Virus record (IMG/VR): IMGVR_UViG_3300044962_000015
Location: 1-59,217 of that record
Length of the DNA stretch: 59,217 nt
Reading direction: 5' to 3' (one strand)
Source of the DNA: a virus
Taxonomy: Duplodnaviria > Caudoviricetes
Shown here one piece after another: positions 155 through 57,963 of the stretch. A program made the translations under genes and the position numbers. Below the pieces are notes generated by a model. That model made no database searches. It worked only from the letters and a program-made list of their open reading frames with translations, and had not been told where the DNA came from. Numbering within the stretch: the first letter of the stretch is position 1; the number at the start of each line of letters is the position of its first letter.

Positions 155-195
155 TGCTTCTCCTCCATGATCAAAAACGATTGCGGGATGGTGCG

Positions 196-291
196 TGGCC
201 CTGGCAGGACTCGAACCTGCGGCCTTCTTACCGGCTCCTCGTCCGGCTGACCCCTGAGCGGGGTGCGCTCTTACCGCTGAGCTACAGGGCC
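196..291 (-). ncRNA. tRNA-like RNA 1 (canonical acceptor/D/T arms, non-canonical anticodon arm, long extra arm)
   Basis: GGCCCTG/CAGGGCC-A acceptor; TA-GCTC-AGCGGTAA-GAGC D arm; GCAGG-TTCGAGT-CCTGC T arm; middle ACCCC-GCTCA-GGGGT plus CCGG-ACGAGGAG-CCGG. Confidence 0.8.
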
Positions 292-382
292 GAACCCCGG
301 TGCGCGGAACCCGCCGGGCCGGGCCGCAAACCGGCGGGCCGCCGCAGTTGGAGCGGCCCCACCGGACTCCGCTAGATCATGA

Positions 383-571
383 TCACCAGCCGGTCGGCGG
401 CGGCAGGCAGACCCGGGTGACCTTGTGGCCCTCCCGGTGGGTGGAGACGTGGCCGCCCCGCGCCGTGCAGTCCCGGGTGAACTTGTCGCCCTTGTCCTTG
501 CTGCCGCAGCCGCCAGCCGTGGTCGCGACCAGCGCGACGACGGCGACGCCGATCAGCAGAATCTTCCTCAT
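383..571 (-). CDS. Small putative lipoprotein
   Basis: MRKILLIGVAVVALVATTAGGC signal/lipobox-like N-terminus, GGAGGA RBS. Confidence 0.7.
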   Translation of the reverse strand: MRKILLIGVAVVALVATTAGGCGSKDKGDKFTRDCTARGGHVSTHREGHKVTRVCLPPPTGW

Positions 572-605
572 GCTTCCTCCAAATGATTGCGGGGATGGTG
601 CGTGG

Positions 606-1139
606 CTAGACCTCGGTCTCCCGGCCCTTCTTCGGGAGGGTGAACTCGTGCACGCCCACCTCGCGGGCGGCATCGTTGACCATGTTGCGGATGTCGGCCG
701 GGGCGAACCGGCGCCAGCACTCCTCGCCGACGGGCTCGGCCCGGTGGTCCAGCGCGTCATGGTTCGCCCGCTGCCCCTCGATCCAGCCGTCCAGGGTGCC
801 CAGCACGGCCGCCAGGGCGGTGCTCTTCGCCGCCGCCACGTCGTAGGCCTCGTTCGCCACCTTGGCCTGCTTCTCCTGCCGTGCGGCGTCCGCGTCGTAC
901 GCGGCGTCGACGATGTTCGAGGCGTTGGCGTTGACGACCATCGAGTGCATCTCGTGGATGGCCTGGCCCGCCGCCCGCGCGTACGAGGCGTACTGGCTGG
1001 AGCCCTCGGCCGCCGCCTTGATGTTGTGGGCGGATTCCCGCTCGATCTGGTCGGCCGTGGCCCGCATCCCCGAGACCAGATGGTCGATGGTGCGCTGAAG
1101 CCGGGCCGCCGCTGCCGCCTCCCAGTCGCGGTCCGTCAT
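606..1139 (-). CDS. Hypothetical protein
   Basis: 177 aa, high GC3, ATGA-coupled to upstream gene. Confidence 0.75.
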   Translation of the reverse strand: MTDRDWEAAAAARLQRTIDHLVSGMRATADQIERESAHNIKAAAEGSSQYASYARAAGQAIHEMHSMVVNANASNIVDAAYDADAARQEKQAKVANEAYDVAAAKSTALAAVLGTLDGWIEGQRANHDALDHRAEPVGEECWRRFAPADIRNMVNDAAREVGVHEFTLPKKGRETEV

Positions 1140-1759
1140 CGCGCCGCCTCCAGCATCGCGACGAACCCGTTGGCCAGGGACGCCATGCGCTCGACGCCTT
1201 CCTTGGTGGTGGTGACCGTGACGTACGGGCTGCCCTGCAACACCTCGATGAAGGGCAGTACCTGGCCGGTGGCCGGGTCCAGGCCCTCACTGCCGACGGG
1301 CAACGAAGCGGCCACGTCGAGGAGCTTCTTCAGGAACGCGGGCCGGATGGCCCGTACGGTCTGCACCTCGTCCGGGTAGTTCTTCTCGGCCCACGCCAGC
1401 GCGGCGGCCTCGTCGGTGACCTTGACGCTCTTGCGGCCGTTGGAGTGGCCCACGGCGGCCAGCTTGGTGCCGTCCGGCAGGAACGCGCCGACGCGCTCCA
1501 CGTGCCGCTTGCCCATGTCGGCGGTGACGGCAGCCCGCAGCGTCTCGGCGGTGGGCTTCAGCACCTTCAGGTACGTCTCCAGCGCGGCCAGCTTCTCCGC
1601 GTCGGTCAGGGCCTGCTCGGTCACCGGCGACGTGTGGTACGGGCAGTCGCCCATGTTGTGGGTGGTGCAGTTGGCCACGCTGCCGTCCGCGTAGCCGACG
1701 TTCAGGTTGGGCTCCTGGGGGTCGCGTGGACCGATCCATCCGGGGGTCTTGTCGGTCAT
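1136..1759 (-). CDS. Hypothetical phage protein (possibly recombination-associated)
   Basis: 207 aa, GAGGAG RBS, in the ERF operon. Confidence 0.7.
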   Translation of the reverse strand: MTDKTPGWIGPRDPQEPNLNVGYADGSVANCTTHNMGDCPYHTSPVTEQALTDAEKLAALETYLKVLKPTAETLRAAVTADMGKRHVERVGAFLPDGTKLAAVGHSNGRKSVKVTDEAAALAWAEKNYPDEVQTVRAIRPAFLKKLLDVAASLPVGSEGLDPATGQVLPFIEVLQGSPYVTVTTTKEGVERMASLANGFVAMLEAAR

Positions 1760-1768
1760 GCCTGCTCC

Positions 1769-1942
1769 TCAGCGTGTGTGGTTGTTCCTGCAACAGGTGC
1801 AGGCGTTGTCGTGCTGCATGCCGTGGTGGCCCAGCGAGCAGGCCCAGCAGCCCTCGTACGGGATGCGGTTGCCGCCGGTGGTCTTGCCCAGGCCCAGCGC
1901 CTTGGCGAGGCGCTTCAGCGGACCCTGCTTCTCGGACGTCAC
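1769..1942 (-). CDS. Small Cys/His-rich protein
   Basis: GTGA overlap with upstream gene; CWAC...HH...H..CTCC. Confidence 0.6.
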   Translation of the reverse strand: MTSEKQGPLKRLAKALGLGKTTGGNRIPYEGCWACSLGHHGMQHDNACTCCRNNHTR

Positions 1943-56100: not shown

Positions 56101-56106
56101 CGGTGA

Positions 56107-56271
56107 TCAGGGCTGCCGCTGGCGCCACGTTGCGGGTGCCAGCGGCAGCACCGTGCCGAAGGCGAAGTGCAGGCCGAGGAAGGCCAGCCCGAGCAGCAGC
56201 AGGTCGACGTCGCCGAGATGCACGCCGAAGGCGGCCAGGAACCAGATGATCGCTGCGATCAGAGCAAACAT
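56107..56271 (-). CDS. Small membrane protein (54 aa)
   Basis: MFALIAAIIWFLAAFGVHLGDVDLLLLGLAFLGLHFAF. Confidence 0.65.
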   Translation of the reverse strand: MFALIAAIIWFLAAFGVHLGDVDLLLLGLAFLGLHFAFGTVLPLAPATWRQRQP

Positions 56272-56315
56272 GCCAGACTGGTACCCGCAGCAGGGACTAC
56301 CTGAAACGAGGGGCG

Positions 56316-56669
56316 ATGGCCGGGCGTACCCCGACGAGCGTGACCAGCGTGAGCCGCAACGCGCTGACGGCCTTCCCGGCGCCCTCAGTGGCCGGGGACG
56401 TGACCAACGGCAACGTCAGCTCGAACGACGGGGCGACCATGCTGGCCGTGCTCAACTCCGACGGCGCCGCGACGCACGTCCTGTCCGTGCAGGTGGTGTC
56501 CGGGGTGGATGGGCTGGCGACGGGACCACGCTCGTACACGATCCCGACGACAGCCTCCGGTACCCAGCTTGTCGGCCCGTTCCCGATCCAGTTCTACGGC
56601 TCGCAGCTGCTGTGGAACGTCGACTCCGCGCAGCTCAAGGTTGCCCCGTATTCGCTACTGGGGCCGTAA
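56316..56669 (+). CDS. Putative virion structural protein
   Basis: GD-x2-NGN-x3-NDG-x3-L-x-V-x-N...GPFP-x3-YG. Confidence 0.6.
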   Translation: MAGRTPTSVTSVSRNALTAFPAPSVAGDVTNGNVSSNDGATMLAVLNSDGAATHVLSVQVVSGVDGLATGPRSYTIPTTASGTQLVGPFPIQFYGSQLLWNVDSAQLKVAPYSLLGP

Positions 56670-57134
56670 CGCCTGCGGCGGCGTGGTCGGCCACTCCTCG
56701 CGCCAGGTCGGCGACATCCGTGCGATCAGGTGGGCCAGGTCCAGCAGCCGGGTCACGGTGTCGCCGGGCGTGGCCCCGTCCCACTTATTCGCGTGCTCCA
56801 GCTCGGGCACGGCCGCGAAGTCGTCCCAGTGGGTCAGCTTGTAGTGGTAGGTGATCGTGCCGGTGTCCAGCTCGATCCCGACGATGAAGTAGCCACCCTC
56901 GAACATGGGCGAGTCGTCCGGGTGGTGCGCCTTGGAACGCCAGGCGGCGGGCTTGTGCGTGGGGTTGCCCGGCGAGGGCACCAACGCCGCGCACGCCGCC
57001 AGTGCAGCGGTCAGCGCCCGGCGGTGGTCGTACAGCTCCCCGAACGTGTGGTAGCCGTCCGACAGTTCCTCGTCGTCCATCATCGAGAAGGTCTCGACTG
57101 GCGACCCGTTCTTGACCAGCGAATACTTCTTCAT
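56655..57134 (-). CDS. WDGH-type phage protein
   Basis: SDGYHTF-x-ELY-x-HR, W-x-SK-x-H, FIVGI, ITYHY, WDG. Confidence 0.75.
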   Translation of the reverse strand: MKKYSLVKNGSPVETFSMMDDEELSDGYHTFGELYDHRRALTAALAACAALVPSPGNPTHKPAAWRSKAHHPDDSPMFEGGYFIVGIELDTGTITYHYKLTHWDDFAAVPELEHANKWDGATPGDTVTRLLDLAHLIARMSPTWREEWPTTPPQALRPQ

Positions 57135-57136
57135 TC

Positions 57137-57550
57137 CTAGCGCCCCGCCCATCCGTCGTCGCCGACCTCGGTCGGCCGGTTCGTGGACGTCTGGGGATCC
57201 CGGGGCGGCGACCAGGTGTCCTTCTGGAGGCGGCCGAGCTGCGGCGGGTCGATGACGACGGCAGGGCGCGGGATCGAGCCGGGCCTGCCCCGGTCGTTGT
57301 GGATGCCTGCGCGCACGAACCAGTCCTTGGCCTCGACGAGCGTGTTCAGCGCGGTAATCAGCTCGTCCGGGTCGCCCGGGATGCGGCGGATCAGGCCGAT
57401 GGCCGCCTCGTAGAGCGGGCGGGACAGGCCCTGAAGCGTCTCGGGCAGGTGGGAGAAGGTCAGCCACGCCAGCGCGGTCTGGACGCCGGGGCTCCTCCCG
57501 AAGGTGATCATCGCTGCGTGGTCGGCAGTGCCGTACTCGGGCTGGGTCAT
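57137..57550 (-). CDS. Small helical-hairpin protein, possibly Acb2/Tad1-like
   Basis: F-x-HLP-x2-LQ-x2-S-x-P...E-x3-AL-x2-L-x-EAKD-x2-VRA. Confidence 0.5.
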   Translation of the reverse strand: MTQPEYGTADHAAMITFGRSPGVQTALAWLTFSHLPETLQGLSRPLYEAAIGLIRRIPGDPDELITALNTLVEAKDWFVRAGIHNDRGRPGSIPRPAVVIDPPQLGRLQKDTWSPPRDPQTSTNRPTEVGDDGWAGR

Positions 57551-57963
57551 GCGTTGCTCTCTTCCTCGTCGTTTTCGATCTTGTAGCTGAGGGCATAGCC
57601 GGGGTCCAGGTTCAGGCCGTCGGCCCACTGGTAGCCGCCGTCCTCGGTCAGGTACCACCAGCCGTACCCGTTCACGGTGTGGATCTTCGCCGGTACCTCG
57701 CGCGGGTCGACCCCGGCCCGCCGCTCGATCACCCAGCCGACCGCCATGCACGCGCCCGCGTCGTCGAGCGTCCGGTCATGGCATGACCGGCAGAGCATCA
57801 GCAGGTTGCGGGAGTCGTTGGAGACGTCCGAGGCGACCCCGTGCACGCCGCCGGAGCCGCGTGTCATCCGGTGGTGCGGGTCCAGGGCCGTAAACGCACG
57901 GCAGCCCTCGCACATGCCGAATGAGCGGGCCTGCGCGAGGGTCTTGGCCGCCTCGAACTTCAC
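57547..57963 (-). CDS. HNH endonuclease
   Basis: CEGC...HHR-x2-R-x2-GG...NL-x2-LC-x2-CH. Confidence 0.85.
   Translation of the reverse strand: MKFEAAKTLAQARSFGMCEGCRAFTALDPHHRMTRGSGGVHGVASDVSNDSRNLLMLCRSCHDRTLDDAGACMAVGWVIERRAGVDPREVPAKIHTVNGYGWWYLTEDGGYQWADGLNLDPGYALSYKIENDEEESNA

Follow-up and report, generated by a model that had tools for sequence, protein, structure and literature searches.

A dispersed and selectively maintained DNA word, probably a protein-binding site, in an uncultivated soil phage and its close relatives

Bacterial chromosomes contain words of 5-12 bp, the DNA uptake sequences, Chi and KOPS, that are read by uptake, recombination or translocation machines, Chi and KOPS being orientation-dependent. 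MotA boxes are a feature of the middle promoters of phage T4. Multi-site systems are also found in the ParB family, e.g., the Noc binding sites and the dispersed centromeres of the plasmid prophage N15, and the OB sites of plasmid RK2 number 12. KorB is described as a CTP-dependent sliding clamp and can act on promoters at distances of up to 1.5 kb (PMC11790492). The stoperators and operators of the cluster A mycobacteriophages (L5 gp71 type) are described as a word read by one protein that contacts two successive major grooves (PMC9283540).

We have analyzed a stretch of 59,217 nt (hereafter the window) from an uncultivated soil phage of the Caudoviricetes, whose major capsid protein and terminase share at most 41% and 38% identity, respectively, with those of any cultured phage. 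An earlier note on this DNA had pointed to a dispersed AT-rich motif, and each of the 15 positions and strands that it gave for the core GATCRAAAAY is an exact match, against 0.04 copies expected (mean of 100 dinucleotide-preserving shuffles, maximum 2). With up to 3 mismatches allowed there are 27 matches against 1.67 expected and no 10-mer of the window is more over-represented than the motif, except in a poly-G run at the contig end; the GATC tetramer as such is not depleted (399 observed, 395 expected). The flanks are also as had been described, with CAT (5 copies), CAA (7) or GAA (2) before the core in 14 of the 15 (GGA in the other one) and GA (9), GT (3) or AA (3) after it in all. Two near-matches proposed at ~40676 and ~42955 are real (40673-40687 and 42952-42966, 2 mismatches each to CAWGATCRAAAACRA), and a third, additional one adjoins the terminase start codon. 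The copies and near-copies are:

166-181 (core 169-178), plus strand: intergenic, 16 nt after a tRNA-like gene, directly beside the SD of a minus-strand gene and antisense to local transcription
7608-7623 (core 7611-7620), plus strand: sense in gene 7264-7638, whose stop follows after 18 nt; of the copies downstream of the ParB-like genes, the one nearest to them
8378-8393 (core 8381-8390), minus strand: intergenic, reversed, immediately upstream of the SD of gene 8406-8591
9685-9699, minus strand: degenerate copy (2 mismatches); its CAT is the start codon of the terminase large subunit read on the opposite strand
10515-10530 (core 10518-10527), plus strand: sense in the terminase large subunit (T-M-I-E-N-N), kept in 16 of 16 relatives
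14914-14929 (core 14917-14926), minus strand: intergenic, reversed, 6 nt before a tRNA-like gene
20235-20250 (core 20238-20247), plus strand: sense in the MuF-like gene (E-I-K-N-E, with Lys AAA)
23283-23298 (core 23286-23295), plus strand: promoter spacer of a 1443-aa gene with an ADP-ribosyltransferase domain
26605-26620 (core 26608-26617), plus strand: sense in the 1443-aa gene (S-K-I-E-N-V, rare codon GTT)
30971-30986 (core 30974-30983), plus strand: sense in gene 30300-32432, kept in 13 of 13 aligned relatives
40016-40031 (core 40019-40028), plus strand: sense in gene 39795-40184
40673-40687, plus strand: degenerate copy (2 mismatches)
42952-42966, plus strand: degenerate copy (2 mismatches)
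44443-44458 (core 44446-44455), plus strand: sense in gene 44354-44692, kept in 14 of 16 relatives
46058-46073 (core 46061-46070), plus strand: sense in the tape measure gene
46842-46857 (core 46845-46854), minus strand: antisense in the tape measure gene
54874-54889 (core 54877-54886), minus strand: antisense in gene 54613-54975 (I-I-F-D-L)
57568-57583 (core 57571-57580), minus strand: sense in the minus-strand HNH-like gene 57547-57963

The word itself had thus been recognized correctly, and only its length of 15 bp has to be amended: the full word measures ca. 16 bp (CAWGATCVAAAACRWT), with position +12 under selection for T as well (found in 9 of 28 genic clusters, where the third-position T background is 5.3%, p ~1e-5). 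Where coding constraint is absent the preferred form is CATGATCAAAAACGATG; at position 4 the preference is G > A > C and T never occurs. One-mismatch variants are no more frequent than the background, and 257 of the 491 AAAAC pentamers in 970 kb fall inside the motif. The motif is asymmetric and its left arm is needed; a possible reading is as a pair of A-Y-G-A-T-S hexamers that flank an A-tract and are spaced by one helical turn.

All of the 18 close relatives carry the motif, with 11-20 copies each (ca. 1 copy per 3.6 kb in the clade), and there are no copies in two farther relatives; the reversed motif, taken as a control, gave no match in the 18 genomes. The 276 sites form 65 orthologous clusters, 31 of them confined to a single genome, i.e., the copy number is held while single sites turn over. 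None of 401 bacterial genomes, sampled from the phylum of a Solirubrobacteraceae MAG that was the only bacterial genome reached by a distant terminase match, has more than 3 copies of the 13-mer core. Being practically absent from these genomes, the word labels phage DNA, and a host nucleoid protein, which had been considered as a possible reader, is unlikely to be the main one.

The earlier note also held that the motif overrides codon bias and is not a protein motif, and both statements are borne out. When synonymous codons were shuffled within genes (1000 rounds), sense copies averaged 1.68 (9 observed) and antisense ones 0.07 (2 observed). GAA accounts for 16% of the Glu codons and AAA for 3.6% of the Lys codons, and the rare codons already remarked upon are indeed there, AAC-GTT-TTT-GAT-CTT at 46842-46856 in the tape measure gene and Lys AAA in the MuF-like gene, which reads GAG-ATC-AAA-AAC. 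In related phages the pattern is kept at 110 of 145 orthologous positions, rare-codon runs included, and orthologous sites are identical to the 10-mer of the window in 88 of 142 cases, against 1525 of 8637 control 10-mers from the same register and the same genes. Two antisense copies, built of three to four rare codons each, are conserved as well (the tape measure one, with the four rare codons GTT-TTT-GAT-CTT, in 11 of 16 relatives, that at 54874-54889 in 13 of 15), and loss of the motif at a site is accompanied by a change in the local peptide.

A motif that has no function and simply follows from codon usage, or from a peptide K/M-I-E-N that recurs, would fit the observation that 122 of the 123 genic sense copies lie in one codon register. 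However, the synonymous shuffle, the antisense copies and the empty reversed control refute it, as does the finding that 97 of the 276 sites (35%) are in the non-coding 12% of the genome, the remaining 65% being inside genes, and we regard its probability as negligible. Moreover, Ile-Glu/Lys-Asn tripeptides are over-represented, five-fold, only where the motif exists (9 in the window against 1.8 expected from composition; 2 and 0 in two motif-less relatives against 1.8 and 1.6 expected), and the motif encodes 9 of the 9 in the window and 159 of the 174 in 17 genomes. Selection acts on the DNA word itself, and its retention in spite of rare codons and altered proteins marks it as a probable protein-binding site.

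That the copies are not consistently aligned with transcription, as had been proposed, is true of the intergenic ones (13 orthologous clusters sense, 13 antisense) and not of the genic ones (145 sense against 34 antisense, ca. 4-6:1). This genic excess can be explained by coding cost, as near-matches in the motif-less relatives show a matching excess (sense to antisense 12:0 with one mismatch, 84:43 with two). The same excess, and the fact that intergenic copies often adjoin an SD, might be taken to indicate that the motif acts in RNA, as a processing site, as a translation signal by the ribosome-binding sites or as the target of a small RNA. We find this reading disfavored and very improbable. 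The closeness to SDs can be attributed to intergenic gaps of only 20-45 nt, relatives retain the antisense copies of the tape measure gene and of 54613-54975 in spite of the cost in rare codons, and the intergenic copies facing either way favor a site in double-stranded DNA over a motif in RNA or in protein. Functional in both orientations, the site is probably bound by a protein as double-stranded DNA.

Copies are excluded from the early region, ca. 7 kb that are empty although about 8 of the 65 clusters would be expected there. It contains an early leftward operon (winged-helix initiator-like, Erf-like and Gam-like proteins), a divergent promoter region and two ParB-like genes:

179-7607, no strand: motif-free zone, without a copy in the corresponding zone of 17 of 17 genomes
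5598-6476, plus strand: candidate reader 1, predicted ParB/Noc/KorB fold, made up of an NTP-binding fold at the N terminus (GGRRLRA), an HTH domain, and helices at the C terminus
6473-7267, plus strand: candidate reader 2 or partner, predicted ParB-fold DUF6551 (DGQHR motif) that begins ahead of the stop of 5598-6476 and overlaps it

This empty zone is left without a reason if the copies are packaging sites, used by the small terminase as multiple pac-like entry points for headful packaging, which we hold to be quite improbable. It is true that in most genomes the densest group (3-4 copies in ca. 3 kb) brackets the clade-specific small terminase (8635-9372) and the start of the large one, and that a perfect copy overlaps the start codon of the latter in 13 of 17 genomes. 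An A-tract together with short, phased repeats is reminiscent of pac sites, and the pac units of phage P1 are TGATCR hexamers. However, the known pac sites are, to our knowledge, single local clusters, and here ca. 12 further copies, each conserved, extend over 45 kb.

A role in transcription is directly suggested at one orthologous promoter only, that of the ADP-ribosyltransferase gene. There, the copy at 23283-23298 is followed by 7 nt, TATGCT (23303-23308), 6 nt and a leaderless ATG at 23315, and in ca. 10 genomes the spacing of 6-7 nt to a TANNNT and a leaderless ATG stays the same while the sequence of the spacer varies. Most copies have no -10-like hexamer downstream, and neither the three consensus-like TTGACA/TATGCT promoters in 1-20000 nor the promoter region of the ParB-like genes contains the motif. 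Control of transcription is a plausible main output, at somewhat less than even confidence.

Overall, the explanation that we prefer, with about even confidence, is that the copies form an array on which a sequence-specific DNA-binding protein, encoded by the phage, has its sites. A protein from the motif-free early region would bind the copies across the rest of the genome and, once bound, would control or mark the DNA, either through the loading of a spreading complex or as a silencer or roadblock of late and distal genes; at the leaderless promoter it might act directly on transcription initiation. The leading candidate, still a doubtful one, is the ParB-like pair. Their ParB-like nature, already proposed, is supported for the first gene by the GGRRLRA box and a two-domain model (pLDDT 83) whose matches to Noc, ParB and KorB extend across 220-250 columns (E = 8e-7), and for the second by its DUF6551 assignment and a similar model (pLDDT 87; same folds, E = 2e-4). 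The halves of the site are unlike, and each could be recognized by one of two unlike ParB-fold subunits. Both genes occur throughout the motif-bearing relatives (16 of 16), the motif-less G017 has neither, and every rightward copy lies downstream of them; this co-occurrence within one clade, which would link pair and motif, is shared by many other clade-specific genes. In other phages the two genes are adjacent in at least 19 of 38 loci and have replication-initiator genes as neighbors, a setting that points to general DNA metabolism. No dispersed motif of this kind emerged from five further complete phage contigs that encode a homologue of 5598-6476, four of which have both genes; their apparent matches were tandem coding repeats. 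No ParA-like Walker A ORF was found. As to the other proteins suggested as binders, 28288-28710 is unlikely, with the gene in only 8 of the 16 motif-bearing relatives, and 4638-4982 has a homologue also in a motif-less relative.

The reader could also be a different phage regulator without a ParB fold, for which the copies would be operators or roadblocks that shut off late and distal genes. It would be a small or two-domain monomer reading two successive major grooves, like the cluster A mycobacteriophage repressors, and we consider it possible, although unlikely. The asymmetric site, with unlike or directly repeated halves 10 bp apart, has the geometry given for the monomeric stoperator repressor (PMC9283540); the motif-free early zone and the copy in a promoter spacer would fit too. 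Candidates are clade-specific proteins without an assigned family (7264-7638, 7798-8160, 11311-11577 on the minus strand, 11947-12300) and 4638-4982, whose C-terminal stretch resembles by eye an excisionase-type HTH and gave nothing in a Pfam scan. On the other hand, no integrase or (immunity) repressor was recognized among 50 window proteins compared with PHROGs and 36 with Pfam, so that a lysogenic silencing role lacks independent support, and neither the mostly genic location nor the indifference of intergenic copies to transcription is stoperator-like.

Finally, a phage enzyme might cut, nick or chemically modify the sites or use them as recombination hot spots, giving localized single-strand interruptions, site-directed modification of bases assisted by a ParB-fold accessory protein, or points at which gene cassettes are exchanged. 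HNH-like and glycosyltransferase or methyltransferase-like genes are present in the genome, and many intergenic copies flank accessory genes rare among the relatives (7635-7805 in 1, 8172-8360 in 4 and 8406-8591 in 3 of 16). ParB-fold proteins are reported to activate phage DNA-modifying enzymes (PMC13229309) and DUF6551 fusions to bind ATP (PMC12704722). We nevertheless judge this improbable: only 3-6 of 16 relatives have the glycosyltransferase or methyltransferase-like genes, no conserved modifying enzyme lies next to the ParB-like pair, copies sit in strongly conserved genes (terminase, tape measure) away from cassette borders, and a dispensable nick would hardly hold rare codons for so long.

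The preferred array of sites for a phage-encoded binding protein shares features with each of the systems mentioned at the outset. As with T4 MotA boxes, one copy replaces a recognizable -35 element upstream of a good -10 hexamer at a fixed spacing, but here this holds for a single orthologous promoter, and half of the intergenic copies face the wrong way. Like DNA uptake sequences, Chi and KOPS, it is a short word at high copy in coding DNA, placed in the cheapest frame and distorting codons and peptides, although it is longer (16 bp) and follows no orientation rule where the DNA is unconstrained. The stoperators of cluster A are also asymmetric short words, with >12 to >20 copies per genome of ca. 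50-60 kb, at a promoter and elsewhere. However, they are described from short intergenic spaces and in an orientation tied to transcription, their sequence has no similarity to the motif, the phage clade is unrelated, and no repressor or integrase was recognized in ours. The known ParB, Noc and KorB sites differ in being palindromes read by homodimers. Our phage has no ParA or KorA-like partner and, in its place, a second ParB-fold protein, and such an array is missing from the four other phages examined that have the gene pair. What our phage would have in common with KorB and OB, Noc and N15 is a replicon-encoded ParB-fold NTP-binding HTH protein and its possible sites, scattered over ca. 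60 kb, some at promoters and some far from them.

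The core GATCRAAAAY occurs 15 times in the window, against an expectation of 0.04, exactly where and in the orientations that the earlier note had reported, and the flanks agree with its description as well. Both near-matches that it named are among the 27 sequences within three mismatches of our query CAWGATCRAAAACRA (1.67 expected), and a third lies at 9685-9699(-), immediately ahead of the terminase ATG. Leaving aside a poly-G run at the contig end, the motif is the most over-represented 10-mer of the window. Across 17 related genomes (970 kb), 257 of 402 RAAAAC and 257 of 491 AAAAC strings fall inside it, and AAAACGA nearly always has (C/G)A(A/T)GATC(G/A/C) to its left, so that the left arm is obligatory and the site asymmetric. 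At position 4, G outnumbers A and A outnumbers C, with T never seen; position -1 takes A or T, and C greatly predominates over T at position 9. With one consensus taken per orthologous cluster, the 28 intergenic clusters have C(-3) in 26, A(-2) in 28, T(-1) in 20 and A at position 4 in 18, followed on the right by C9 in 27, G10 in 24, A11 in 18, T12 in 13 and G13 in 18, which points to CATGATCAAAAACGATG as the form preferred where coding does not constrain it (the other motif duplex named beside it is CAAGATCGAAAACGAC). CATGATCAAAAACGATG can be viewed as a pair of A-Y-G-A-T-S hexamers spaced by 10 bp about an A-tract, or else as a CAT...ATG dyad that is imperfect. Even inside genes, T stands at +12 in 56 of 143 sense copies, where third codon positions are T in only 5.3% of cases. 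Avoidance of GATC was considered and discarded (399 observed, 395 expected). One motif-bearing relative, G016 (loci L203-L205), has 14 A and 5 G at position 4, whereas the remaining 16 together have 90 A and 175 G (p about 9e-4), the A of G016 arising via Glu-to-Lys changes at several orthologous copies. Its orthologue of 5598-6476, a candidate reader gene, is the most divergent one (46% identity), and the shift may reflect a drift in reader specificity.

At 59,217 bp and 69% G+C, the window constitutes a complete virus record (CheckV 100%). Major tail and adaptor proteins were recognised, together with a leftward block of winged-helix initiator-like, Erf-like and Gam-like genes and the following:

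8635-9372, small terminase
9697-11118, terminase large subunit
17036-19030, portal
19465-21072, MuF-like gene
36914-38782, capsid, 41% identity to the capsid of Actinoplanes phage phiAsp2
45867-48269, tape measure
54965-55840, endolysin-like gene

No cultured phage matched by near-identity (megablast, 8 kb of the window as query), the best cultured relatives by protein reaching at most 41% (capsid) and 38% (terminase) identity. A terminase search over one genome per bacterial species found no prophage relative, only matches of 38% identity or less. The sequence was present only in soil DNA metagenome runs, with no RNA run among them, and family and structure searches with the small clade-specific proteins returned nothing useful.

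The G runs of 19 and 52 bases at 1-75, the start of the record, are most likely artificial, produced at the contig end by sequencing or assembly, and a minus-strand gene starting near 139 is thereby cut by the linearisation point. Within the minus-strand winged-helix initiator-like gene (3706-4530), a 22-bp unit is repeated 3.8 times in tandem (4097-4180); this may be an iteron-type origin inside an initiator gene, comparable to that of lambdoid phages. ARAGORN predicted three tRNA-like genes at 195-291(-), 14933-15029(+) and 15183-15255(+), whose anticodon loops or lengths are unusual (97 nt, type undetermined), and a motif copy lies within 16 nt of two of them. The gene finder called nothing in the 325 bp ahead of the terminase gene (9372-9700). 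The latter has no SD, and an 83-codon ORF at 9449-9700 ends in an ATGA that overlaps its start, which suggests translational coupling; the motif copy that relatives carry at the terminase start falls in the last codons of this ORF. Placed after the MuF-like gene, a 1443-aa protein (23303-27646 with its promoter) has an ADP-ribosyltransferase exoenzyme domain at its C-terminus, and 1.1 kb downstream there is an ADP-ribosylglycohydrolase-like gene (28747-29889), found in only 8 of 16 relatives. It is possible that the two represent an ejected effector with its antidote. Finally, 58812-59216(-) encodes a surface lipoprotein domain of the Ltp type (Pfam PF07553, E = 2e-25). Such domains are known from superinfection exclusion by temperate phages, and this one occurs here although integrase, ParA and repressor were not found in the window.

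That the motif is a mere by-product of coding seems to us scarcely credible. Genic sense copies do keep a single register, NNG-ATC-RAA-AAY (122 of 123 in 13 genomes), the cheapest one given the G+C-rich third positions. Nevertheless, all nine I-[E/K]-N tripeptides of the window are encoded by the motif, though GAA and AAA are minor codons, and so are 159 of 174 in the 17 genomes. The tripeptide is itself five-fold over-represented in the window (9 against 1.8 expected), whereas two motif-less relatives show no such excess (2 and 0, with 1.8 and 1.6 expected), which indicates that the DNA word shapes the proteins. The earlier claim that the motif overrides codon bias withstood a synonymous shuffle, which gave 1.68 sense copies against the 9 observed, and also the comparison with relatives, where the pattern is kept in 110 of 145 aligned positions orthologous to the 11 genic copies of the window, at local protein identities of 40-100%. 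Strict identity to the window 10-mer was found in 88 of 142 cases, compared with 1525 of 8637 control 10-mers from the same genes and in the same register. Loss of the motif goes with a wholly different peptide (such as LEVAGE in place of LEIKNE, or TAAEGD in place of AKIEND), and one-mismatch variants are no commoner than in motif-less relatives; each site is either intact or gone. Conservation extends to antisense copies written in rare codons:

Antisense copy in the tape measure gene, rare codons GTT-TTT-GAT-CTT, kept in 11 of 16 relatives
Antisense copy in gene 54613-54975, rare codons ATT-TTC-GAT-CTT, kept in 13 of 15 relatives

The motif is a word of double-stranded DNA, free in orientation and under strong purifying selection. 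The evolutionary evidence is unusually clear, with a 16-bp word that recodes terminase, tape measure and other genes throughout the clade and changes even their amino acids. For annotation, this means that the DNA dictates the conserved K/M-I-E-N peptides of the clade, which should not be taken for functional protein motifs.

All 18 records searched of the phage clade, which is made up of contigs of about 54-59 kb whose terminases are 76-98% identical to that of the window, have 11-20 copies, and the reversed control gave 0 matches; relatives at 55% and 34% terminase identity have no copies and no comparable word of their own. Among the matches listed, the six high-G+C viral contigs with 3-4 copies in the stretch examined are all members of this clade, and so are two of the three two-copy contigs, the third of these (L111, 66% G+C) having no match to any window protein. 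The 276 copies of 17 genomes fall into 65 orthologous clusters, 31 of them found in a single genome; copy number per genome is held while the sites turn over. In 401 sampled genomes from the phylum of a distant terminase match, a count that takes in the unpublished G146 and G044 with one match each, the 13-mer was found at most three times per genome and at least once in 108 of them. On this sample the word labels phage DNA.

As for its placement, 97 of the 276 copies are non-coding, in the 12% of the DNA left non-coding by the gene calls, and 179 are inside called genes. Intergenic copies occupy the space from a stop codon to the following SD and may face either way (13 clusters sense, 13 antisense and 2 between convergent genes), while genic copies are 145 sense to 34 antisense. 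This last bias would be a point in favor of an RNA signal, which we hold to be extremely unlikely. Near-matches in motif-less relatives show the same sense excess (12:0 at one mismatch, 84:43 at two), so that no link to transcription is needed to account for it. Site orientation is + over most of the map and - in the last quarter, with a convergent pair in the tape measure gene. A replication-like polarity switch was considered and is not claimed, since there are several exceptions per genome and the bias is mostly explained by coding cost. That the copies are nick, modification or recombination sites is, in our opinion, decidedly unlikely. Their spacing has a coefficient of variation of 0.56-0.94, against about 0.92 for random placement, and in 12 of 13 genomes it is smaller than the random mean; as sites are shared among genomes, we make no claim of even spacing. 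When every genome is aligned on the terminase start, none of the 17 has a copy between about -8.5 and -2.2 kb, where ca. 8 of the 65 clusters would be expected. This empty zone contains the early leftward operon, the divergent promoter region and both ParB-like genes (5598-6476 and 6473-7267). The terminase genes, for their part, are bracketed by 3-4 copies in most genomes, a position that might speak for a role in packaging; we consider such a role very unlikely.

One orthologous copy has a clear promoter context. It lies 6-7 nt upstream of a TANNNT hexamer, followed after 6 nt by the leaderless ATG of the ADP-ribosyltransferase gene, and this spacing is fixed in about 10 genomes in which the spacer sequence varies; in the window, a canonical leaderless promoter (TATGCT, 6 nt, ATG; from 23303) drives the gene for the 1443-aa protein. 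Over 13 genomes, TANNNT at +16 or +17 accompanies 9 of 60 intergenic and 5 of 150 genic sites, essentially one orthologous group. We discarded a general role as sigma-70 type promoter element or activator box at about -30, as most copies have no -10 hexamer at a fixed distance. There are three consensus-like TTGACA-N16-18-TATGCT promoters in positions 1-20000, none with the motif. The wider promoter-like family TTGACA/TTGCCA-N16-18-TATGCT marks the early and tRNA regions, with the dispersed motif on none of its members:

3110-3137(-), promoter-like site
about 5092-5126(+), promoter-like site with CATGCT instead of TATGCT
15258-15287(+), promoter-like site
16112-16141(+), promoter-like site

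The empty early zone and the promoter copy favor an effect on late and distal gene expression. A phage protein made early would bind the copies in the remaining DNA, and these could serve as roadblocks or operators, or else as places where a spreading complex loads. The ParB-like pair provides candidates for this protein. The product of 5598-6476 contains GGRRLRA, and its alignment with Spo0J and ParB covers the region of their GERRxRA box (phmmer, Spo0J 1vz0, E = 0.0018). Its model (pLDDT 83) matched Noc (7nfu, E = 8e-7), ParB, pNOB8 ParB and KorB by Foldseek over 220-250 columns, and the predicted structure has the N-terminal NTP-binding fold (GxxRxxA box) followed by an HTH domain, as in the ParB family. 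The neighboring 6473-7267 is a DUF6551 protein with a DGQHR motif, whose model (pLDDT 87) matches the same folds more weakly. Phage ParB-fold/DUF6551 proteins have been reported to bind ATP (PMC12704722). The first gene has 4580 representatives at E <= 1e-3, and a homologue of the second comes directly after it in at least 19 of 38 loci of other phages (loci L278-L313), an adjacency that makes the pair a conserved module. It occurs in many unrelated high-G+C phage contigs, often beside a replication-initiator gene, and conservation is higher for the second gene (about 40% identity) than for the first (about 27%).

Both genes are present in 16 of 16 motif-bearing relatives and not in the motif-less G017. 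The same pattern is displayed by the small terminase and by several small proteins without a recognised family, and it is possible that another regulator reads the sites. Two unlike ParB-fold subunits could explain an asymmetric site, a tentative hypothesis against which there are three points. No dispersed rare word was present in five other full contigs that encode a homologue of the first gene (four encode the pair), in a comparison to which few or degenerate sites are invisible. The site is not a palindrome. There is also no ParA, neither in the family scans nor as a Walker A ORF in a six-frame scan of the window, where three matches were outside called-gene frames and one inside the gene for the 1443-aa protein. 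The predicted complex of the two proteins scored 0.03 (no controls) and gave no support, which counts neither for nor against binding. We also screened 20-kb loci around distant homologues of the first gene for dispersed 10-mers, with low power, as the screen recovered the motif in about half of the positive-control loci with exact 10-mers and in 3 of 11 with one mismatch. Apparent dispersed words in two of the five full contigs, G021 and G025, were discarded as tandem coding repeats.

In its complete form, the ParB-pair reading would have two unlike ParB-fold NTPases, encoded in the motif-free early region, jointly read an asymmetric 16-bp word essentially limited to phage DNA, load at ca. 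15 sites and from there spread over the remaining genome, or silence, protect or organise it, a parS-like, genome-wide self-recognition in a phage without ParA or integrase. This whole scheme we regard as unlikely; if true, it would provide the first case of a ParB heterodimer recognising an asymmetric site. The motif may offer a route to the function of a widespread and unexplained phage gene pair. Within a clade of uncultivated soil phages, the word is missing from the early region and, beyond those few 13-mer matches, from the sampled bacterial genomes. It is a phage-specific DNA label, possibly useful as part of an orthogonal protein-DNA pair.

The array would work like stoperator and KorB OB arrays, but it lacks defining features of both. 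ParB-family sites (parS, the Noc site, KorB OB) are 13-16 bp palindromes for homodimers and the partition systems have a partner ATPase, ParA (PMC11790492), whereas our motif is asymmetric, with only partial dyads (ATCG/CGAT or CAT/ATG) around an A-tract center and an obligatory left arm, and ParA was not found in the window. The stoperators of cluster A mycobacteriophages follow transcription in their orientation and sit in promoters and short intergenic spaces (PMC9283540), whereas here intergenic orientations are balanced, antisense genic copies are conserved and most copies are in genes. Cluster A phages are temperate, with an immunity repressor that has an HTH and a stoperator domain. No repressor or integrase family was matched among the window proteins scanned (50 against PHROGs, 36 against Pfam). 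Literature searches on dispersed or asymmetric repeats in actinobacteriophages found only the known stoperator work, and full-text searches for four 10-mer strings had only primers and unrelated sequences among the matches listed. What the array does have in common with stoperators is an asymmetric short site in many copies (15 in the window, 11-20 in relatives), and dispersed arrays of this kind, stoperators and KorB sites included, are among the few known designs of whole-genome regulation in phages and plasmids.
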